Shown here in pieces: positions 1,413 to 28,503 of a DNA stretch of 64,000 nt (position 1 is the first letter of the stretch; every line of letters begins with the position of its first letter). This DNA comes from a phage. The notes beneath the pieces were generated by a model. It made no database searches. It saw nothing but the letters and a program-made list of their open reading frames with translations, and had not been told where the DNA came from. The stretch lies in the sequence record PQ478073.1; one strand, 5' to 3'. Both the position numbers and the translations under genes were made by a program.

Positions 1413-2378
1413 GTGAAAAAGCTTGATTTAAATACAATTGCCGAAGAAGTTCTGGATGAATGTTTTGCTAATGAAGAAGTCAACACACTAGAAGCCTTAG
1501 ATTTCGTTGAAGATAAAGATGATAATGAAGGTAAAGTACAAAGCAGTTTCAAATATAATATTACACTTAAGCGACCACCAAATGTTTCCAATGAAGATCT
1601 AATTCGTGATATTCAAGCTGGTATCAATGTAAAGAAAAACACTGAACTGTTAGTTCGTTACAATTATGGACTGATTATTGATGTAGCAAGTAAATGTACA
1701 TGTTATATCCCATTTGAAGATAAGATTTCATATGGTGTTGAGGGGTTCATGAGAGCACTAAAAACCTTTGATCTTAATAAGAATGTTAAGTTCATTACCT
1801 ATGCTTCTTCTAGTATTTACATGACAGTCTATAACGAAAGTTCTGACGCTAACTATATGGTACACTTCCCACGTTATATGAGTGTTCATAAGATCAAAGT
1901 AAAAAGATTCTGTCAGGAATATATGCGTAAACATGGTGTTCGCCCAACTCCTGAAATAATCTCAGAGGGTACTGGGATTGAGATTCAGCATGTTAATAAT
2001 TGTTTGTTATTTCAAAGCGAATACACTTCGCTGGATGCACCATTAGACGGTGTTACAGATGGTACATTAGGTGACATTATTCATTCACCTGCTTCTGATT
2101 TTAACCTCAATGTTGATAGTATCCGTGCACCTTTACGTTATGCTATCAATGAACTGACTAACGAATTGAGTACTAAAGAACGTGAGATTATCCAGCGTGT
2201 TCATGGTCTAGGTGAATATGAACCTGAAACGCTTCGTGAGATTGCTGATAATGGTTTTGTTGATGATAATGGAAAATATGTTAAATCCCGTTCATCAATA
2301 CACCGAAAGTACAGTGAAGCTATGCAAAAGCTTAAGAAGTTAGTACTTGCAAAAGGGTACGAATACGAAGATTTCTAA
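1413..2378 (+). CDS. sigma-70 family RNA polymerase sigma factor (phage-encoded)
   Basis: GTG start with AGGAG RBS; region-2-like FITYASSSIYMTV and region-4-like LSTKEREIIQRVHGLGEYEPETLREIAD HTH; recalled from sigma-70 alignment. Confidence 0.7.
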   Translation: MKKLDLNTIAEEVLDECFANEEVNTLEALDFVEDKDDNEGKVQSSFKYNITLKRPPNVSNEDLIRDIQAGINVKKNTELLVRYNYGLIIDVASKCTCYIPFEDKISYGVEGFMRALKTFDLNKNVKFITYASSSIYMTVYNESSDANYMVHFPRYMSVHKIKVKRFCQEYMRKHGVRPTPEIISEGTGIEIQHVNNCLLFQSEYTSLDAPLDGVTDGTLGDIIHSPASDFNLNVDSIRAPLRYAINELTNELSTKEREIIQRVHGLGEYEPETLREIADNGFVDDNGKYVKSRSSIHRKYSEAMQKLKKLVLAKGYEYEDF

Positions 2379-3465: not shown

Positions 3466-4254
3466 ATGAGCACTATCGATGAACTGATTCAACGGAATTC
3501 AAAATATTACCAACCATCAGAAATTGTGGATAACATTACTAAATCTGAGTTTGGACCGAACACACGCAAACTCATTCATGTAATGTCACGTGATGGCTTT
3601 AAATGTGATTGTTGTGGTGAATCAAATGTAGTATTCACTTTACATAAGCACAGTACTAAAGAACGTTATAAATTCAGACCTTATGTACTTAAAGGGAAAC
3701 GCCTTGTACGCATGACGTTAGACCATAATGTACTGGACTGTCTTCAGGGCGGTAATGATAAAGAGAACATGACTGCACTGTGTGAAGATTGTAACGCATT
3801 ACGCCAGCATAAGTTTGCTGAATACAGTGAGTTTAAACACTGGTATCATAACGCGGATCGTTCAATCGAGCCTGACGTTAACTACTGCTTCATTGAGTAC
3901 ATTAAGAATGCCAAAGATACATACATTCTTAAATCAATGTCACCTATTACCGTGTTTCCTGAGAACCTATTCACTACATTAAAGAATAGTTTTATTGTAG
4001 GTGATATTGATGCATTCAAGTATTTTGACAAAGGTGCAAAACATTTTGAAATTCAATGTCTTAGTACTGCACTATGTGAACTCATTAAAATTTACATAAA
4101 AGAGTATTTGGGTATTGACAATGTACGTGTACCAGAGTATACTTTTTCTATTGAATTCGATTGTGAATCAATCAAAGAGTTTGGAATTCTTTTCAATAAA
4201 CAAATAGAACTTGCAATTCAAAACGAAATCAAGTACTATACTACTAACATTTAA
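3466..4254 (+). CDS. HNH endonuclease (possible free-standing homing endonuclease)
   Basis: CxxC...DHNVLDCLQGGNDKENMTALCEDCN HNH motif with zinc-ligand cysteines. Confidence 0.7.
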   Translation: MSTIDELIQRNSKYYQPSEIVDNITKSEFGPNTRKLIHVMSRDGFKCDCCGESNVVFTLHKHSTKERYKFRPYVLKGKRLVRMTLDHNVLDCLQGGNDKENMTALCEDCNALRQHKFAEYSEFKHWYHNADRSIEPDVNYCFIEYIKNAKDTYILKSMSPITVFPENLFTTLKNSFIVGDIDAFKYFDKGAKHFEIQCLSTALCELIKIYIKEYLGIDNVRVPEYTFSIEFDCESIKEFGILFNKQIELAIQNEIKYYTTNI

Positions 4255-7844: not shown

Positions 7845-8507
7845 ATGTTAGTTAATCTTAATTTCATCACTTCACCTGACTGGGCATTACGTGGAGTTTC
7901 TTTAAACTTCAAGGAAACTATGTTTGACTACATTGGTGAGTGTACATTGGTAAATGCAACTTTTGATCCAAATCATCCGTTTTGGGCTGAAATTCATGAT
8001 CCAAATGTAAACAACAATACATCTGTTATGACTATTGTCCAGACTAAACATGCAGGTATCCTTGCAGGTTATCGACCTGCACATGCAATTGAACACTTCA
8101 CTGATTACGATGTCGTGGATGAATACCCAATGATCCATGAAGATGGAAGTCTATACACATCTGAAGACTTCCGTGCTATCTTTAATAGTACTGATGATAT
8201 TCTACCAAGTGGACGTCCACGTCCTGAGTCTTATCTTATGCATCCATCTTATGGTGTAGCAGATACGCTTGAACAGATTATGAATAAGTACAAGAACCTA
8301 ATTGAAGGTCCAGAAGAAATTGTCCTGTGCTATCACCCAGTACTGAAGTCTGAACAACCAAAGGATGGTGGATGGCGTTGGCATAAGAATGGTGAGTATA
8401 TCGGTACTAAACGAAGTAAAGAACGTTTTGAGTACTTGTATGATGAGCCAGATGTTGATGTGGTTTTGTGTTATAATTTTATTAAGGTGAAAAAGAAATG
8501 TATCTAG
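7845..8507 (+). CDS. hypothetical protein (220 aa)
   Basis: ATG 7845 with GAGGA RBS; track start 7827 is TTG. Confidence 0.55.
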   Translation: MLVNLNFITSPDWALRGVSLNFKETMFDYIGECTLVNATFDPNHPFWAEIHDPNVNNNTSVMTIVQTKHAGILAGYRPAHAIEHFTDYDVVDEYPMIHEDGSLYTSEDFRAIFNSTDDILPSGRPRPESYLMHPSYGVADTLEQIMNKYKNLIEGPEEIVLCYHPVLKSEQPKDGGWRWHKNGEYIGTKRSKERFEYLYDEPDVDVVLCYNFIKVKKKCI

Positions 8508-10308: not shown

Positions 10309-10500
10309 ATGTTGATTTATCAAAGTGATAATATTCGTGTTATGCAGCATCCCTACTTACAAATCTTTGATGTGCAGCAGTATATGGAAGGTGATGACCC
10401 AAGAACCTATGGTCGTAAGTATGATTACTTCACTGTAAAGCAGTGTAAAAATATTAACGAAGTACGACAATTAGTTCAAGAACTTCAAAACAAAGGTTGA
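10309..10500 (+). CDS. hypothetical protein (63 aa)
   Basis: ATG 10309 just after upstream stop; stop lies in terminator stem. Confidence 0.45.
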   Translation: MLIYQSDNIRVMQHPYLQIFDVQQYMEGDDPRTYGRKYDYFTVKQCKNINEVRQLVQELQNKG

Positions 10501-10526
10501 CTTCGGTCAGCCTTTTTTGTTATAAT
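10493..10526 (+). terminator. terminator hairpin GGTTGACTTCGGTCAGCC + T-run with embedded -35 and downstream TATAAT
   Basis: UUCG tetraloop stem plus T6; TTGACT 10497-10502, TATAAT 10521-10526. Confidence 0.7.
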
Positions 10527-16613: not shown

Positions 16614-16621
16614 TAATAAAA

Positions 16622-16646
16622 GGGTTGACTTCGGTCAGCCTTTTTT
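16622..16646 (+). terminator. terminator GGGTTGACTTCGGTCAGCC + T6
   Basis: Hairpin family copy. Confidence 0.7.
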
Positions 16647-16682
16647 GTTATGATGTTGATATTAACTACAGAGGATAAAGTA

Positions 16683-20840: not shown

Positions 20841-21110
20841 ATGTACGCACTGTATAATAAAGAAAAGAAACGATTTGCTAAGGTTGAAATTTCGATTGAT
20901 ACCTTTGATATGTTGGAGTACTGTATTGTGACGGACCTATATGCTAACTTGTATTACGTTCTTGATGACGTATCAGTACTGCAACGATTGCTTGAGAATT
21001 CCAAAAGTCAATGCCAGGGCATCCATGATGGTTCATCTTATGAAACACCTGAGTGTTCCTACGGCTATCTGGACGGGTATGAGATTGTGAAGTTGGGGAT
21101 TGTTGAATAA
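20841..21110 (+). CDS. hypothetical protein (89 aa)
   Basis: ATG 20841 with GGAG RBS. Confidence 0.5.
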   Translation: MYALYNKEKKRFAKVEISIDTFDMLEYCIVTDLYANLYYVLDDVSVLQRLLENSKSQCQGIHDGSSYETPECSYGYLDGYEIVKLGIVE

Positions 21111-21116
21111 AGAAAA

Positions 21117-21149
21117 GGGTTGACTACGGTCAGCCCTTTTTGCTATAAT
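21117..21149 (+). terminator. terminator GGGTTGACTACGGTCAGCCC + T-run fused to promoter
   Basis: TTGACT 21120-21125 in stem; TATAAT 21144-21149; 18-nt spacer. Confidence 0.7.
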
Positions 21150-21177
21150 CATTTCATCGAAACGAGAGGATGAATAC

Positions 21178-21693
21178 ATGACACGCATTAACTTAGTACA
21201 CGTTAAAGAACTTGCTGACCAACATCTGATGGCTGAATATCGTGAACTCCCACGTGTATTTGGTTCTGTACAAAAACACGTTCAAGCACGTAAGCGTGTA
21301 CGTGATTTCAAAATTAACAGTACTTACCTGTTGGGTTCAGGTCATGTAACATTCTTCTACAACAAGTTATTGTACTTACAGAAGCGTCATATTGATATTG
21401 TTAACGAATGTTTGCGTCGTGGTATGAAGATTCAAAACACTGAAGTAAACGACATTAGCGGATTCCCTGCTGAGTTTTGTAATGACTACGTACCATCGGA
21501 GTCAGAGATTAAAATGTCTCGTGATCGTTTGATTGAGAAGCTCCAGATGAAGCCTACGTGGTATAAGTTTACTGATGTTGAATGTCCACAGTACGTTAAA
21601 GATATGCAGAACGTAAGTAGTAAGAACGAATCTAGTACTGATATGTTCGACGAAATTGAAGAACAAATCAAAGATGAAATGAATAATTATTAA
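21178..21693 (+). CDS. denV: endonuclease V, pyrimidine-dimer DNA glycosylase (T4 DenV homologue)
   Basis: [29 protein letters not shown]...RVRDFKI...[10 protein letters not shown] matches T4 DenV from memory; GAGGA RBS. Confidence 0.85.
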
Positions 21694-21699
21694 AGGAAA

Positions 21700-21716
21700 G
21701 GATTGACTTCGGTCAC
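21700..21716 (+). other. degenerate copy of the TTGACT hairpin element (no T-run)
   Basis: GGATTGACTTCGGTCAC. Confidence 0.3.
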
Positions 21717-21731
21717 ACAAAGGAACATAAC

Positions 21732-21926
21732 ATGTTATTAGTATATTCAAAGCGTTTCTGGATTTCTTTCATTGTACTTTCGCTAATCGGCTTCGGTGTG
21801 AGTATAATCTTTTCGTGGGATGAATTGGGTACATGGTATTATGAAGTTCCGTGGTACATGAAGATAGCTCCTTGTTATGCGGCATTGTTCGTGTCATTCC
21901 TTATTGTTGTCTTCAGCGAGGATTAG
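21732..21926 (+). CDS. small membrane protein (64 aa)
   Basis: AAAGGAA RBS; two hydrophobic segments. Confidence 0.5.
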   Translation: MLLVYSKRFWISFIVLSLIGFGVSIIFSWDELGTWYYEVPWYMKIAPCYAALFVSFLIVVFSED

Positions 21927-22032
21927 TTGATGTAGTATGTGCTACACCAAAGTATTTGGATATTTTAGATATAAACATTGACACCTGTTCTATCTTTCTG
22001 TATTATGTACATCACCAAATGAGGAATACAAC

Positions 22033-22392
22033 ATGGCATCTTTAAGTGAAATCGCAGAATACAACCCACTAACAATCTCAACAATTCAACGTACAAAAAC
22101 TTTTTATTTCCGTCCTGCTGATGGATGGAAACGTGGAATGAATGGTGACTATCGAGTACTGGAAGATTCACTAATCGAGCGTATCAACTCTGAACTACAG
22201 AAGTATGAAGGTGTTAAAGTTGTGCGTTCAACTTCTCGTTATTTTGAGTACTACATTGAGTCTTCAACTGTAAATGAAAACTCATCATTATCGGTGGACA
22301 ACACTGATATTCTTCGTAATGCAGTTGGTATGTTATGCAACATTGCAGAAGAAATGGGATTAACTATTAGTACTATGAGTGAGTTAGAATAA
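22033..22392 (+). CDS. hypothetical protein (119 aa)
   Basis: GAGGAA RBS. Confidence 0.55.
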   Translation: MASLSEIAEYNPLTISTIQRTKTFYFRPADGWKRGMNGDYRVLEDSLIERINSELQKYEGVKVVRSTSRYFEYYIESSTVNENSSLSVDNTDILRNAVGMLCNIAEEMGLTISTMSELE

Positions 22393-22398
22393 CATAAA

Positions 22399-22431
22399 GG
22401 GTTGACTTCGGTCAGCCCTTTTTGCTATAAT
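22399..22431 (+). terminator. terminator fused to promoter
   Basis: TTGACT 22402-22407; TATAAT 22426-22431. Confidence 0.7.
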
Positions 22432-22457
22432 CATTTCATCAACTCAAGAGGCAACAC

Positions 22458-22691
22458 ATGAAACTATCTTTTATACGATTGGCTGAATTCTTTGGTACTG
22501 ATGTAATTACTCTACAACAAATCGCAGATAATACATCATTAACTACACAAGAAGTACTTGACTTAGATGTAATTCAGTGCGATAATACTTCCATCGATTA
22601 CAAAGAAGGTCTTGTCGAAAAAGATAAGATTCAAGCTAAAATTAATGGTGCTGGACGGGTTCAGTACTGGAAAGGAGTTTTAAGTAAATGA
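22458..22691 (+). CDS. hypothetical protein (77 aa)
   Basis: AGAGG RBS. Confidence 0.5.
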   Translation: MKLSFIRLAEFFGTDVITLQQIADNTSLTTQEVLDLDVIQCDNTSIDYKEGLVEKDKIQAKINGAGRVQYWKGVLSK

Positions 22692-24112
22692 AAATTTATA
22701 TTGATAAATTTGGAACGACTTATGAATATTATGATTATACACATTATAATTCATATATACAAAAAAATCATAACCAAATGTCACCTTATTTGCATTATGA
22801 AGATTTAATGGAACTATTCTCTAAAAATGTAAATTCTATTAAATTTATTGGTTTTAAAGATCCAACATGGAAAAGTTCACATACGCATGTGTATTTTGAA
22901 TATGATAATATGGTATATGAACATTCAATATCAAATATCAAAACAAAATTCGCTGATCATAGATATAAACCAGGTAGACTATGTAGAACCTTGGAACAAA
23001 TTATAAATGAGTCCATTTATATATTTAAAAAATATGATAAATTTAATTTTCATAGCATTGCATCATTTAATGGAGCACGAACTATAATCAATTATACAAT
23101 TGAAGGACGTGAAAGAATATTTTCTATATCATTCAATTCATTAATAAAAGATTTTAAAGGGGGAAGCCCATGTTATTCATATGAAGAAGTAGAAAATATA
23201 TCTATAAAAAAATTAAATGAACATAATTTGAGATTTATCTCAATTAGTAAATTTAATGGTGTGTTTAGTTGTATTGAATATGAACAACCAACTCAGAAAG
23301 GAAAAAAATATGTTGATTTTAATATATTAATCTATAATGAATGGAAAGGTAATCTACCGAATATAACTAATGAAGAGGTGAATAATCGAATTTCAGAAAA
23401 AATGAAAAAACTAAATATCAATGAATATGAAATTGTAGAATATAACAGTACTAGGAGCATGGTTGAATATACAGTTGATGATATTTCATATACAACTAGT
23501 TACGATAAGATTATGCATCCAACTTGGAAAGGTAATCCAAGATATACAAAAGAAAGAATAATAAAATTGTCGAAAAAATATTGCAAGGGTAAAAAATTTC
23601 AATTTAATAAAATAATTGGTAATGTTAAAGGAATTAATACTATCATTGAATTAGAACTTGAAAATGGTATGTTTATATATCCAAAATTTATACAATTAAA
23701 AGGAGGTTCTGACTTTAATACATCCACTGATGGTAAGATTTTAACAGAAATAATTTATCCTTTGTTCGACAATTATATCACACAAAAACGTTTTGAAAAT
23801 TGTAGAAATCCTGAAACTGGATACTTGTTGCCATATGATTTGTATGTTCCAGAATTTAATTTATTATTAGAAAAAGATGGAGTGCAACATTACAATCCAA
23901 CAGCATATTTTAATAAAACATATGAATCATATTTGAAATTGAGAGAGAGAGATGAATTTAAAAACAAATATGCCATATCAAATGGTTATAATTTCATGCG
24001 AATAGCAGATTATGAAGATCATGAAAAAATATTGAAATCTTTCCTTAAACTCATTGAAGAGAATCCAGGAAAGCAAATTGTGCAGATCTATGGTGAAGTA
24101 CAAATTATCTAA
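22688..24112 (+). CDS. AT-rich repeat-containing protein (474 aa); candidate nuclease or homing-type gene
   Basis: Very low GC versus neighbours; internal PTWK(G/S) repeats; C-terminal D...EKDG motif. Confidence 0.5.
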   Translation: MKIYIDKFGTTYEYYDYTHYNSYIQKNHNQMSPYLHYEDLMELFSKNVNSIKFIGFKDPTWKSSHTHVYFEYDNMVYEHSISNIKTKFADHRYKPGRLCRTLEQIINESIYIFKKYDKFNFHSIASFNGARTIINYTIEGRERIFSISFNSLIKDFKGGSPCYSYEEVENISIKKLNEHNLRFISISKFNGVFSCIEYEQPTQKGKKYVDFNILIYNEWKGNLPNITNEEVNNRISEKMKKLNINEYEIVEYNSTRSMVEYTVDDISYTTSYDKIMHPTWKGNPRYTKERIIKLSKKYCKGKKFQFNKIIGNVKGINTIIELELENGMFIYPKFIQLKGGSDFNTSTDGKILTEIIYPLFDNYITQKRFENCRNPETGYLLPYDLYVPEFNLLLEKDGVQHYNPTAYFNKTYESYLKLRERDEFKNKYAISNGYNFMRIADYEDHEKILKSFLKLIEENPGKQIVQIYGEVQII

Positions 24113-24119
24113 AACAAAA

Positions 24120-24152
24120 GGGTTGACTTCGGTCGGCCCTTTTTGCTATAAT
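24120..24152 (+). terminator. terminator fused to promoter
   Basis: GGGTTGACTTCGGTCGGCCC + T-run; TATAAT 24147-24152. Confidence 0.7.
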
Positions 24153-24180
24153 CATTTCATCAACTCAAGAGGATAAAGAC

Positions 24181-24951
24181 ATGACCAGAGAAGCACGCAG
24201 CATTCAAATTCAGAAAAACTTCAACTCCATGATGGTTGCTCTTGAGTGTTTGCTCGATGATAGCAGTACTGTAAAAAGTATGGTTGTCAGTGGTGCTCCT
24301 GGTGTTGGCAAGACTTACACCTTGTCCCAACGTCTCCAGATGGCTCATGACGCAGCAGAATGGAACGTAGCTACTATCAGTGGTAAGATGACTACTCTTG
24401 CTCTGTACGAAGTTCTGTACAAGAATCGTCACAGCACCAACGTATTAGTACTTGATGATATGGATAGCATCTTTGAATCAGAAGATGGTATGAACCTACT
24501 CAAAGCTGTTTTGGATAGTGGTAAGCGTACTGTATCTTATATGACTAGCTCTAAGTACTTGAGCACTAACGGCATTCCTAATAGCTTTGATTTTAATGGT
24601 CGCATCGTATTCATTACTAACAAAGATTTAGCGTTAGATGCTAAAGCTAAAACTAAAATGTCTGCTCATTATGCTGCTCTTATGTCTCGTTCTGTGTACG
24701 TGGATTTACAGATTCAGACTAAAAGTGATATCATGATTCATATTGAAAATGTAATGACTAAGACTAATATTCTTGCATCTAAAGGTGTTAACAGTAACGG
24801 CAGTAAAGCAATTCTGAACTGGATGTTAAAACATGAAGATAATCTTCGTGCACCATCCCTGCGTATGCCTTTGTTGATTTCAGCAGTATATAACAACAAT
24901 CCGTATGATTGGGAAGAACAATGTGAAAACTTGTTCCTTGAGAAAATCTAA
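24181..24951 (+). CDS. P-loop NTPase (AAA-like)
   Basis: Walker A GAPGVGKT; Walker B-like VLVLDDMD. Confidence 0.65.
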   Translation: MTREARSIQIQKNFNSMMVALECLLDDSSTVKSMVVSGAPGVGKTYTLSQRLQMAHDAAEWNVATISGKMTTLALYEVLYKNRHSTNVLVLDDMDSIFESEDGMNLLKAVLDSGKRTVSYMTSSKYLSTNGIPNSFDFNGRIVFITNKDLALDAKAKTKMSAHYAALMSRSVYVDLQIQTKSDIMIHIENVMTKTNILASKGVNSNGSKAILNWMLKHEDNLRAPSLRMPLLISAVYNNNPYDWEEQCENLFLEKI

Positions 24952-25018
24952 TTACATATGTTGACAGTACTACCATCGTGTAGTACTATAACTTAATATT
25001 CACCACCGGAGATACGAT

Positions 25019-25360
25019 ATGCTTGAGTTTTTTAATTCAGATACAATGCTTGGTATCACGCTAATTTACATGTTTGTATTTTTGTGTTATCATTCAATTG
25101 TAATTAGTCTGTGGTATTTTAAAAGGAAAATTGTTTTTAAATTGTATTCGGATGATAATGTAGTCTTAGTTTTATATAGTATTATCCAAGGTGGGTTTAT
25201 TTTATTTGGTGTGATGACATATGCGATTTACATGTTACAAATTGATAATACACCACACATTACACAATATCTTGTGTTTTCAGGTCTAATCGTGTGGTTA
25301 TTGGTGTGTACTATGTATTTTATTATTAAAGCTCGTGATAACTTTAAATGGGGATTCTAA
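25019..25360 (+). CDS. small multi-TM membrane protein, family M
   Basis: GGAG RBS; paralogue of next gene (MLEFFxSDTM). Confidence 0.6.
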   Translation: MLEFFNSDTMLGITLIYMFVFLCYHSIVISLWYFKRKIVFKLYSDDNVVLVLYSIIQGGFILFGVMTYAIYMLQIDNTPHITQYLVFSGLIVWLLVCTMYFIIKARDNFKWGF

Positions 25361-25698
25361 TGTTAGAATTTTTTAAATCAGATACAATGATTAGTATTAC
25401 TTTGATTTATCTTTTTGGTTTTTTCTTTTATCATGCACTGGTTGTAGTACTATGGTATTTTAAAAAGAAAATTGTTTTTAAACTGTATCCAGTGAGGAAT
25501 TCATCACTAGTTCTTTACACACTTGTTCAAGGTTTGTTTGCAATTGTTGGTCTTATGGCACACTTAATTTATTGTGCTAATCCTCACTTGAACTCAATCT
25601 CACAATATATTGTATTCTTTGGGTTGTTCATTTGGTTAGTTGTATACTTAATCCATCTCATTATTCATGGTAGAGATAAAATTCGCGGAGACTTCTAA
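25360..25698 (+). CDS. small multi-TM membrane protein, family M
   Basis: ATG overlaps upstream stop; N-terminus MLEFFKSDTM. Confidence 0.6.
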   Translation: MLEFFKSDTMISITLIYLFGFFFYHALVVVLWYFKKKIVFKLYPVRNSSLVLYTLVQGLFAIVGLMAHLIYCANPHLNSISQYIVFFGLFIWLVVYLIHLIIHGRDKIRGDF

Positions 25699-26045
25699 TG
25701 TTTGAAGCTTATCTTGAGTTTTTAAGGAGTAGTTCAGTTGCACATTCACTTGCAGGGATTATTCTAACAACTTATGTATCATTTTGGGTAGTTATGTTTC
25801 TAGGATGGTATTTTAAACGACAATTCTATAAACGTAATGGTGAAGATTTTATGAATTCTGCCATTAATCAATCGTTGTTTGCATCAACATTGATTGCATG
25901 TATTGTAGCAACACTCACAGGAAAGGTACTACCAGCTTTTTCCGCAGTTTACGGCACACTTGGGATGATATGTTTAACTTTTATATTGACCATTAAAATT
26001 TGTTGTGTTATGATTGAACTTCGAAATAAGATACCGGAGGAATGA
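25698..26045 (+). CDS. small multi-TM membrane protein, family M
   Basis: C-terminus LRNKIPEE. Confidence 0.55.
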   Translation: MFEAYLEFLRSSSVAHSLAGIILTTYVSFWVVMFLGWYFKRQFYKRNGEDFMNSAINQSLFASTLIACIVATLTGKVLPAFSAVYGTLGMICLTFILTIKICCVMIELRNKIPEE

Positions 26046-26380
26046 TGGAGTACTTTATTGATTTACTGCCGTGGTATATGAAAGTTAGTACCATGTACTA
26101 TATTATTAGTGCTGGATTCTACTTTCTGATGTGGTTCTTTAAACGACCAATTTCAGTATTCATCGCTGATAACATGCTGCAATTAAAATTACACGCATGG
26201 TTTGGTCTGGCGATGATTATGCCTATTATTCACTACTCAATGATTAGTAGAGGTTTCCGTTCTAATGGTGAACCAATTGTATTAGTATTCTATTGGGGTT
26301 CAACTATTGCATATGTAAGTTTGTTGTTGTTCCCAGTCGTTCATAAGTTACGTGCTAAAGTTCCTGATGCGAGGTACTAA
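26042..26380 (+). CDS. small multi-TM membrane protein, family M
   Basis: C-terminus LRAKVPDARY. Confidence 0.55.
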   Translation: MMEYFIDLLPWYMKVSTMYYIISAGFYFLMWFFKRPISVFIADNMLQLKLHAWFGLAMIMPIIHYSMISRGFRSNGEPIVLVFYWGSTIAYVSLLLFPVVHKLRAKVPDARY

Positions 26381-26694
26381 TGGATATAGTAACATTGATT
26401 TACACGTTGTATTCATTCTATTTCATTATGTGTTGGGTTGGATTTTTATTTGTACTCAAGATGTTTGATTATGTTGAAAAACAGATAAAAGAATTTTGTA
26501 TTCCTTTTATCGGTTCAACCATTATTAGTGTTTCTTGTGTGTATTTTTTGGTTTTTGATCCACCAGATAACACTGCAATGATTGACTTGATGTTACTACC
26601 AACAACTGTTACTTTTTTATGTAGTCTGATGCCGCCGATTAGCCGTGGACTAACAGAATTTAGACGCAATCAAAAGCGTAAACGAGGGATGTAA
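26380..26694 (+). CDS. small multi-TM membrane protein, family M
   Basis: Hydrophobic; basic C-terminus. Confidence 0.55.
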   Translation: MDIVTLIYTLYSFYFIMCWVGFLFVLKMFDYVEKQIKEFCIPFIGSTIISVSCVYFLVFDPPDNTAMIDLMLLPTTVTFLCSLMPPISRGLTEFRRNQKRKRGM

Positions 26695-27062
26695 TGGAAA
26701 TTGCTCTTATTATCTTAACTGCTATGCTGTTTATTAGTACTGTGGTTATAATTGGTAAATTCTTTTGTGTATCATTTTTAGAAACGGTATACGATGAAAT
26801 TGCTGATGATTATGAACTACAAGCCGGATTTTTCATTACGTATTGGCTTAGTTTATTTTGTCTAGTCATTGCTTGGATTTTACATATCTTTAAATGGGGT
26901 ATGGTAGACGGTGATCCTATTATGGCAATTATTGTTCTAGTGTTTGGTATCCTTGGTGGTGCAGTGCATAATCTAATGGTTATCTGGCAAACTGTTCAAT
27001 ATGTTTTGGTTCCCTATTTCGAAAAGATGCACAGTACAATTAAAAAACGTAAACGAGGTTAG
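26694..27062 (+). CDS. small multi-TM membrane protein, family M
   Basis: Hydrophobic; basic C-terminus KKRKRG. Confidence 0.55.
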   Translation: MEIALIILTAMLFISTVVIIGKFFCVSFLETVYDEIADDYELQAGFFITYWLSLFCLVIAWILHIFKWGMVDGDPIMAIIVLVFGILGGAVHNLMVIWQTVQYVLVPYFEKMHSTIKKRKRG

Positions 27063-27840: not shown

Positions 27841-28503
27841 ATGATGAAAACAAAATTAGGTTTGTTTTATAAAAATTATTTCGTTAAACAGCGTAAATTT
27901 ATAAAAAAATATTTCTTTGGTGAGAAGTCTAGTCCTATAATTTTTAAAAGACCAAGTTATAATACTTACTTAGCTGGTGCTAAACAGTCTAAGAAATTTA
28001 TTACTCTTTTAAATAAAAACAAAATTAAAGCTTCTTATGTTGAAACGAGAAGAAACTCATCAATAACTCCTGGTGATTTTATTGAGTACGGATGTTTCAA
28101 TATTAAGTATAATGATAATACATACTTTATGGATATTGATTGTAATACATCCAATCTTTTTAACATTGTAGTAAATCCATTAAAACAATATAATGTTTAT
28201 GGTGATTCTATTATCAAATTAATCAAAAACAAAGATGGCTTTGATTTTGAAATAAATGTTTTAGATGATAATTTTGACGAAGTACCCGTAAACCCTGAAA
28301 TCTGTGATATTTTAAACAGTTTAAAAGGTAGTACCTACAATATATCATCTGATTTAATGTTTCAGTACTCATTAATCCATAAAGATATTGAAAAGTATAT
28401 TGAATGTTCCAAAATTTTGAATTATCTTTACGATGAATTTAAAAAGAGTTCTAAAATAACCGCATACACTTTGTACAATATTCCTAAAATGGTGAATCTT
28501 TGA
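27841..28503 (+). CDS. AT-rich hypothetical protein (220 aa)
   Basis: AAGGAG RBS; 3' end overlaps convergent RCC1-like gene. Confidence 0.55.
   Translation: MMKTKLGLFYKNYFVKQRKFIKKYFFGEKSSPIIFKRPSYNTYLAGAKQSKKFITLLNKNKIKASYVETRRNSSITPGDFIEYGCFNIKYNDNTYFMDIDCNTSNLFNIVVNPLKQYNVYGDSIIKLIKNKDGFDFEINVLDDNFDEVPVNPEICDILNSLKGSTYNISSDLMFQYSLIHKDIEKYIECSKILNYLYDEFKKSSKITAYTLYNIPKMVNL

Follow-up and report, generated by a model that had tools for sequence, protein, structure and literature searches.

A probable homing endonuclease gene with cysteine-less CapR-type modules in an Asteriusvirus jumbo phage

Introduction

Free-standing homing endonuclease genes (HEGs) of phage T4 are typically promoter-less cassettes that ride on upstream transcripts (PMC2988022). 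In phage HEGs, the CapR, DUF723 and DUF4379 repeats are repeated, shuffled DNA-binding units (PMC10448857), and in the EDxHD enzyme I-Bth0305I the composite motif includes an extra conserved acidic residue opposite F62 of Vsr (PMC3239194). In T4-like phages, PeSL promoter-terminator motifs mediate modular shuffling (PMC2839356, PMC4122927). Here we describe an open reading frame (ORF) at 22688-24112 on the + strand of a phage DNA stretch of 64,000 nucleotides (nt) from sequence record PQ478073.1, hereafter the window, and compare it with these systems.

We conclude, with a probability of about 75%, that this ORF is a free-standing HEG of an Asteriusvirus jumbo phage, its cleavage and homing activities being predicted from sequence comparison and structure models. 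The nuclease is predicted to belong to the Vsr-like (EDxHD-type) class, and the DNA-binding part appears to be an array of zinc-less CapR/DUF723-type modules. The comparisons indicate that this is a selfish homing nuclease gene, which a few Escherichia coli jumbo phages acquired recently. The protein lacks the NUMOD N-terminus of the EDxHD enzymes as well as the zinc ligands and the Pfam match of the CapR/DUF723 proteins, and it is best described as a divergent member that would work like both families.

Like the seg and mob HEGs of T4 (PMC2988022), the gene is a promoter-less intergenic cassette between conserved genes that would be carried by an upstream transcript, it is sporadic among relatives, and it undergoes allelic replacement by other HEGs. 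The T4 enzymes, however, are of the GIY-YIG or HNH type whereas this one is Vsr-like, and their homing has been shown experimentally while homing is predicted here. With the T5orf172 HEGs of ICP1 and other phages (PMC10448857), the gene shares the fusion of repeated, shuffled DNA-binding modules of ~60 amino acids (aa) to a C-terminal nuclease and the location at a boundary of genetic exchange, with domain shuffling visible at the locus. It differs from them in having a Vsr-like nuclease instead of a T5orf172/GIY-YIG-like one, and in having modules that are devoid of zinc ligands and are not recognised by Pfam models.

Results

The gene occupies an exact insertion site in few relatives

The window derives from an Asteriusvirus of about 350 kb, an E. 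coli jumbo phage of the 121Q/PBECO4-like kind. Escherichia phage BAU.Micro_ELP-22 matches it at 98.9% over 21100-25400, a segment that dozens of other Asteriusvirus records match piecewise. The ORF was confirmed as a 474-aa reading frame with an ATG start. The first-pass annotation, made from the letters of the window, had suggested a selfish or homing-type gene and proposed presence/absence polymorphism among related phages as a check. Such polymorphism is evident: about 45 Asteriusvirus records share the flanks of the gene, and three of them carry it. These three, SHEFM2K, BAU.Micro_ELP-22 and JNE01, are the only records with near-identical copies (99.6-99.9%) among 50,697 phage records, and two of them already annotate the gene as ‘homing endonuclease’ in GenBank. 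The ORF is intact over its 474 codons in all four genomes that bear it.

A synthetic empty-site query, in which the left flank was joined to the right flank, is matched in a single piece by four Salmonella Asteriusviruses at about 94%. Comparison with Salmonella phage SD-15_S21 resolved the junction to the base: the empty allele reads ...AAGTAAA followed directly by AAAAGGGTTGAC, and the window reads ...AAGTAAA-TGAAAAT...TCTAAAAC-AAAAGGGTTGAC. The 1427-nt insert (22689-24115) consists of little more than the ORF and has no promoter of its own; its exact position is between a conserved 77-aa ORF and the terminator-promoter cassette that precedes a conserved ATPase gene (Table 1). The ATG of the endonuclease ORF overlaps the TGA stop of the 77-aa ORF (ATGA); in relatives free of the endonuclease the latter continues through the terminator and is 88 aa long. 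Neither the 77-aa ORF nor the endonuclease gene is present in SP27, and in ph0011 everything between denV and the ATPase gene is missing.

Other relatives carry different endonuclease genes at the site. In G17, Sharanji and JP4 there is a paralog of 372 aa whose nuclease domain is the same, and the last 150 nt are 86% identical. In PBECO4 and 121Q, the proteins at the site (379 and 487 aa) carry zinc-ribbon or CapR repeats and end in a different nuclease domain (phrog_681); 121Q gp221, at this same site, contains two CapR domains (E 2.6e-23). The proteins of G17 and PBECO4 have their first ~35 aa in common while their nuclease domains are different, which points to domain shuffling at the locus. 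Between denV and the ATPase gene there thus appears to be a hot spot at which at least three unrelated endonuclease genes compete. Beside the alternative endonucleases there is also an extra small ORF, absent from the window, which encodes 93 aa at 24% guanine-plus-cytosine (GC) in 121Q (8168-8449 of locus L002) and 60 aa in PBECO4 (3932-4114 of locus L006). A tblastn search found no paralog of the endonuclease elsewhere within the window.

This distribution bears on whether the protein could be a nuclease or DNA-binding protein derived from an HEG but domesticated by the phage, for the exclusion of competing phages or satellites or for gene regulation. There is precedent in CapR and Odn, HEG domains that were co-opted in the ICP1/PLE system (PMC10448857, PMC8096241), and the tight coupling of the gene to the conserved 77-aa ORF and the strong conservation of the C-terminal tail in jumbo-phage paralogs would fit such a role. 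A gene of benefit to the phage should nevertheless have been kept in more than three of about 45 relatives, and at this site unrelated HEGs or nothing at all can take its place; marker exclusion by an HEG and homing look alike in the present data. We therefore regard domestication as quite improbable.

The gene is better conserved than the sequences on either side

Compared with JNE01, the endonuclease gene is 99-100% identical, the 77-aa ORF about 90% and the ATPase gene 55-65%; compared with SHEFM2K, the gene is 100% identical and the upstream ORF 88-91%. Because the gene is more conserved than the sequences around it, recent lateral spread of a homing gene is the reading that these values suggest. 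The recombination break in JNE01 lies inside the downstream intergenic cassette (24118..24152). On the left side, a single-nucleotide polymorphism at position 22600 separates the two kinds of genome, with TAC (Tyr) in all four endonuclease-bearing genomes and TTC (Phe) in all eight empty-site or alternative-endonuclease genomes compared; it may be a co-conversion marker or a change that gives target immunity. HEG-specific ‘immunity’ substitutions were also sought in the downstream flank and none was found, this flank being a mosaic of two haplotypes unrelated to the presence of the HEG.

The surroundings of the cassette differ as well. JNE01 contains, upstream of denV (2337-2696 of locus L009), a homolog with 77% identity of the 119-aa ORF that lies at 22033-22392 in the window, between a 64-aa ORF and the 77-aa ORF. 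Consequently, the cassette of the 77-aa ORF and the endonuclease gene has a different left neighbour in JNE01.

The C-terminal domain is a predicted Vsr-like nuclease

The C-terminal part of the protein (aa 344-474), modelled together with 58 homologs, gave a Vsr-like nuclease fold with a predicted local distance difference test (pLDDT) score of 95. When the whole 474-aa model was compared with the PDB by Foldseek, nothing significant was found and AbaSI appeared at E 0.3. This weak signal is due to the multi-domain, flexibly arranged model, and modelling the C-terminal domain alone solved the problem. A phmmer search against PDB sequences found nothing, and 3r3p gave no direct sequence hit to the endonuclease. 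By sequence profile, the domain matches the Vsr-like domain of AbaSI (E 0.007), which is the best profile match among solved structures, and the alignment pairs D384/E395/D397/H401 with AbaSI D61/E72/D74/H78. In AbaSI, D61 has been proposed to be catalytic, D61A and D74A were among the mutants tested, and H78A abolishes activity (PMC4081097).

In two family alignments of 33 and 58 homologs, D384, E395, H401 and D422 are invariant and G398 is nearly invariant; K425 is invariant in the smaller alignment and nearly so in the larger one. The endonuclease has all of the family-conserved residues D384, E395, D397, H401, D422 and K425, of which H401 and K425 are the conserved base-like ones. Judged by their spacing, D384/E395/H401/D422 would correspond to D51/F62/H69/D97 of Vsr and form a composite EDxHD motif; in I-Bth0305I the counterparts would be D196, H213 and D222, together with the acidic residue found opposite Vsr F62 (PMC3239194). 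The first-pass annotation had noted a D...E-K-D-G pattern loosely reminiscent of PD-(D/E)xK nucleases. The pattern is present (D384...E395-K396-D397-G398) and the superfamily call was right, but K396 is not conserved, being usually Y (‘EYDG’), and the protein has no D...(D/E)-x-K triad with a lysine as general base. Its catalytic logic appears to be that of the Vsr variant with a histidine base.

Like I-Bth0305I of Bacillus phage 0305phi8-36 and Hef of T4-related phages, the protein is phage-borne and bipartite, its nuclease being C-terminal and its predicted DNA-binding region N-terminal; Hef, moreover, is also free-standing and takes the place of other HEGs at a locus. In contrast to I-Bth0305I, the gene is not in an intron. 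The EDxHD enzymes have a NUMOD/helix-turn-helix N-terminus, whereas five CapR/DUF723-like modules with one helix and three strands precede the nuclease here, and no NUMOD model matched in the Pfam scan of the protein. Further differences from these enzymes are the extra conserved K425 and a conserved C-terminal tail of a helix plus a beta-hairpin (445-474). It is also uncertain which residue stands for the initial Glu of the motif (Vsr E25, I-Bth0305I E170): in the first helix most homologs have ‘SKGE’, while the endonuclease has ‘TDGK’ and the jumbo-phage paralogs ‘TEAK’, with an acidic residue two positions earlier.

The nuclease domain belongs to a family that includes proven homing endonucleases. 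Of the annotated phage protein families, phrog_559 (‘HNH endonuclease’, E 1.9e-15) and phrog_9084 (‘homing endonuclease’, E 6.9e-14) match, and an exhaustive HMMER search gave 5877 relatives, nearly all of which match only residues ~350-455 or ~280-455. Relatives of the domain occur in 208 phage records; among them are proteins annotated as belonging to group I introns and others located at terminase genes. The family is most abundant in AT-rich Firmicute phages, and an origin from these was considered; at identities of 30-45% it is not demonstrable. The other HEGs at the locus are likewise AT-shifted (29-32% GC).

The match to AbaSI, together with the location two genes downstream of the repair gene denV, could be taken to mean that the protein is an immobile housekeeping enzyme of DNA repair or restriction, such as a Vsr-like mismatch nickase or an AbaSI-like modification-dependent nuclease. 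We consider this highly improbable: the sporadic distribution, the empty sites and the allelic replacement do not suit a housekeeping role, an SRA-like domain is absent, and a long array of sequence-reading modules joined to a nuclease is the architecture of an HEG (PMC10448857).

The last residues of the protein deserve separate mention. The tail at aa 452-474 (24041-24109), FLKLIEENPGKQIVQIYGEVQII, is nearly invariant among jumbo-phage paralogs, with 86% DNA identity to G17, and absent from distant homologs. It may serve dimerisation or bind a phage-specific partner, or it may reflect gene conversion among paralogs.

The N-terminal part is an array of cysteine-less modules

The full-length AlphaFold model shows five successive modules over aa 31-343, each with a helix and three strands (plus a short helix), the third of which (R3, 161-222) is of low confidence. 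Internal repeats had been noticed in the first-pass annotation with a period of ~35 aa. They are real, but the period is ~61 aa: R2, R3 and R4 are mutually similar with local-alignment z of 6.8-7.8, a score that none of 500 shuffles reached, and R5 (284-343) resembles R2 at z 4.3. R1 (31-97) is like the other modules only in its predicted fold, and it is common to the N-termini of the jumbo-phage paralogs P0002 and P0016. Nor is (D/H)PTWK(G/S) the repeat motif that it had been taken for, since ‘DPTWKS’ (58-63), which lies between strands 1 and 2 of the first module, is out of register with ‘HPTWKG’ (277-282). The motif in register is (F/W/L)KG(G/N) at 156, 219, 280 and 337, which ends R2-R5; YKPG is found at 93.

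Several comparisons tie these modules to zinc-bearing ones. Residues 23-162 align with P0002 of Escherichia phage EJP2 (BLASTP E 3e-10), with ‘FKGGSPC’ opposite the zinc knuckle ‘DKGCVKC’, and residues 219-473 align with P0016 (BLASTP E 5e-28) over two zinc-bearing modules and the nuclease. Among the 33 aligned homologs, DUF4379 (PF14311) is found in 17, DUF723 (PF05265) in 14 and CapR (PF21817) in 9. A fold search of the full-length model against BFVD gave near-full-length matches over 450-500 columns at E of about 1e-15, with names such as ‘Homing endonuclease’ (Enterococcus phage EFP01), ‘Treble clef zinc finger domain-containing protein’ and ‘Zinc-ribbon domain-containing protein’. From these alignments and models, we interpret the modules as cysteine-less derivatives of the CapR/DUF723/DUF4379 zinc-ribbon repeat, and R2-R5 are predicted to form a DNA-binding array. 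The whole protein has five scattered cysteines (99, 162, 195, 299 and 372) and no CxxC. Cysteine-less modules are also known in the family members P0013 and P0144, so that the loss of zinc ligands is not unique to this gene. When the N-terminal 342 aa were searched against 5.8 billion sequences only the protein itself was found, and the origin of the array is not traceable.

The modules also raise the question of a decaying, immobile HEG remnant that has lost its zinc-dependent DNA binding and is drifting toward AT before deletion. The cycle of invasion, decay and loss of HEGs is well known, and such a remnant would account for the absence of CxxC...CxxC ligands from every module, the lack of a match to any curated family model and the extremely low GC at third codon positions (GC3, 16%). 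On the other hand, the reading frame is intact wherever the gene is found and all family-invariant catalytic residues are kept; the gene is 99-100% identical while its flanks differ by 9-45%, indicating recent transfer and not long residence; and the modules of P0013 and P0144 imply that loss of the zinc ligands need not end function. Decay therefore seems unlikely to us, and an active homing gene remains the preferred reading.

Similar terminator-promoter cassettes bound the 77-aa ORF and the endonuclease gene

Both intergenic spaces contain a composite element in which a terminator and a promoter are combined. The upstream one forms a stem-loop, GGGTTGAC-TTCG-GTCAGCCC, followed by a T-run. 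The cassettes at 22397 and 24118 both read TTGACT-18-TGCTATAAT, with the -35 TTGACT within the stem and an extended -10 TGCTATAAT, a promoter-like match of 11/12 with the TG extension. Five copies of the cassette are present on the + strand of the window (10492-10526, 16620-16654, 21115-21149, 22397-22431 and 24118-24152), where none would be expected, and the repeated sequence of ~35-55 nt is AAGGGTTGACTTCGGTCRGCCCTTTTTGCTATAAT. It is also matched over short stretches in jumbo phages (RaK2/K64-1-like, Yersinia, Erwinia, Serratia and Pectobacterium), in Aeromonas phage 65 and in Vibrio phages.

The upstream cassette is likely the promoter for the 77-aa ORF and the endonuclease gene, and the downstream one would end the endonuclease transcript and drive the next gene. 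An AAGGAG sequence 10 nt upstream of the endonuclease ATG, inside the 77-aa ORF, is already present in the empty-site alleles. The arrangement is similar to the PeSL of T4-like phages in that near-identical stem-loop-plus-promoter elements of ~55 nt bound the 77-aa ORF and the HEG, and in that the exchange boundary of JNE01 falls inside one of them. The Asteriusviruses are another phage group, however.

Features of the locus and of the window

The features of the locus are collected in Table 1. As the first-pass annotation had stated, the ORF is markedly AT-rich: its GC content is 24.9% against a window mean of 35.2%, the lowest of all 1425-nt stretches in the 64 kb (z = -3.9). The steps coincide with the ends of the ORF, from ~35% to 21% at the start and to 39-44% past the stop.

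Table 1 Coordinates of features at the endonuclease locus
Feature	Position	Strand	Basis or remark
denV	21178-21693		Pyr_excise, E 5.8e-15; upstream of endonuclease gene
Upstream composite terminator-plus-promoter cassette (PeSL-like)	22397..22431	+	
Conserved 77-aa ORF	22458..22691	+	phrog_34150, function unknown
Endonuclease-linked SNP	22600..22600	+	alignment
Shine-Dalgarno-like AAGGAG	22672..22677	+	sequence read
Probable homing endonuclease ORF, 474 aa	22688..24112	+	
Inserted segment, 1427 nt +/- A-run ambiguity	22689..24115	+	junction comparison with Salmonella phage SD-15_S21
Module R1, aa 31-97	22778..22978	+	
Modules R2-R5, aa 98-160, 161-222, 223-283, 284-343	22979..23716	+	
Predicted Vsr-like (EDxHD-type) nuclease domain, aa 344-474	23717..24109	+	
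Conserved P-loop/AAA-like ATPase gene (phrog_1250)	24181..24951	+	right flank of insertion site

A second nuclease gene in the window had been grouped with the endonuclease gene in the first-pass annotation. The ORF at 3466-4254 (+) is an HNH endonuclease, as had been proposed (phrog_35175, E 1.8e-188); it encodes 262 aa with a CxxC...DH...N...CxxC arrangement, has an ordinary GC of 34% and gave no Pfam hit. We found no link between the two genes beyond the fact that both encode nucleases.

Elsewhere in the window, a tandem array of six paralogous genes for predicted membrane proteins of ~105-120 aa lies at 25019-27062 (+); adjacent copies reach ~80% DNA identity in places, and the copy number varies among relatives. 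Ten successive ORFs of similar size (358-402 aa) at 29709-41790 (-) suggest a large paralogous gene family. The 321-aa ORF at 1413-2378 (+), with sigma-70 regions 2, 3 and 4, is a phage-encoded sigma factor.

Discussion

The window ORF has what distinguishes HEGs in comparative data: a nuclease of a homing family, sporadic presence, precise empty sites, replacement by alternative endonucleases at the same site and an identity well above that of its flanks. Two findings would have spoken against a mobile nuclease gene, namely a fold other than that of a nuclease, and a host-like composition combined with conserved presence; neither was obtained. The three other readings (decay, domestication, and a repair or restriction role) are each less likely than that of an HEG.

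Some of our results weigh against this conclusion. AT-richness alone is no proof of transfer, since the ORF at 27841-28503 (+; 220 aa, no Pfam match) is a conserved Asteriusvirus gene (phrog_34359, E 1e-149) and is equally AT-rich at 24.7% GC; for this reason, low GC by itself was rejected as a mark of mobility. The empty site could be a precise deletion and not the ancestral state. No substitution is common to all HEG-bearing genomes downstream of the gene, and upstream there is just the one at 22600. As for the modules, none of the five keeps the four zinc ligands (C/H...CxxC), and the PF21817, PF05265 and PF14311 models gave no hit to the protein at E < 1; Pfam and NCBIfam scans returned only sub-threshold chance matches (CzcE and an LRR domain). 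Since the ligands are gone and no Pfam or NCBIfam model matches, DNA binding by the array is something that we infer. Profile support for homology to the zinc repeats is modest (hmmsearch domain E 0.001-0.1): hhalign of the five repeats with 129 zinc modules was in register but weak (E 0.009), and a hidden Markov model built from the zinc modules of the homologs likewise detected the repeats weakly and in register, which is no proof alone, the pairwise alignments with P0002 and P0016 being stronger.

We propose that the gene would be transcribed together with the 77-aa ORF from the promoter of the upstream cassette and translated by coupling, through the ATGA overlap and the AAGGAG sequence. 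In a mixed infection with an HEG-less relative, the module array would bind a long asymmetric site near the junction of the 77-aa ORF and the ATPase gene, and the Vsr-like domain would cut the rival genome, with D384, D397 and D422 binding metal and H401 acting as general base. The endonuclease is probably a dimer, as are I-Bth0305I and AbaSI. Recombinational repair from the HEG-bearing genome would then copy the gene and adjacent markers into the rival, and the repeated terminator-promoter cassettes may give additional homology for the exchange.

A further proposal, which we put forward very tentatively, is that the cysteine-free modules are working, zinc-independent CapR/DUF723 repeats, each ~61-aa unit reading a few base pairs, and that the two genes form a mobile cassette with PeSL-like bounds in which the nuclease break and the repeats jointly drive exchange between jumbo phages. 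We hold this extension to be doubtful at present.

The compositional anomaly of the window would thus be explained by a recently transferred selfish gene. The locus offers a clean natural example, in jumbo phages, of a probable HEG at a genetic-exchange boundary, and the predicted protein combines a Vsr-like nuclease with a modular CapR-type array, a kind of array treated until now chiefly in connection with T5orf172 HEGs. The gene appears to be an ordinary kind of phage parasite, whose sole unusual feature is that its putative DNA-binding repeats have no zinc-binding cysteines. Should these modules have kept specific DNA binding despite the missing zinc, they would deserve characterisation as a compact, modular scaffold for recognition.

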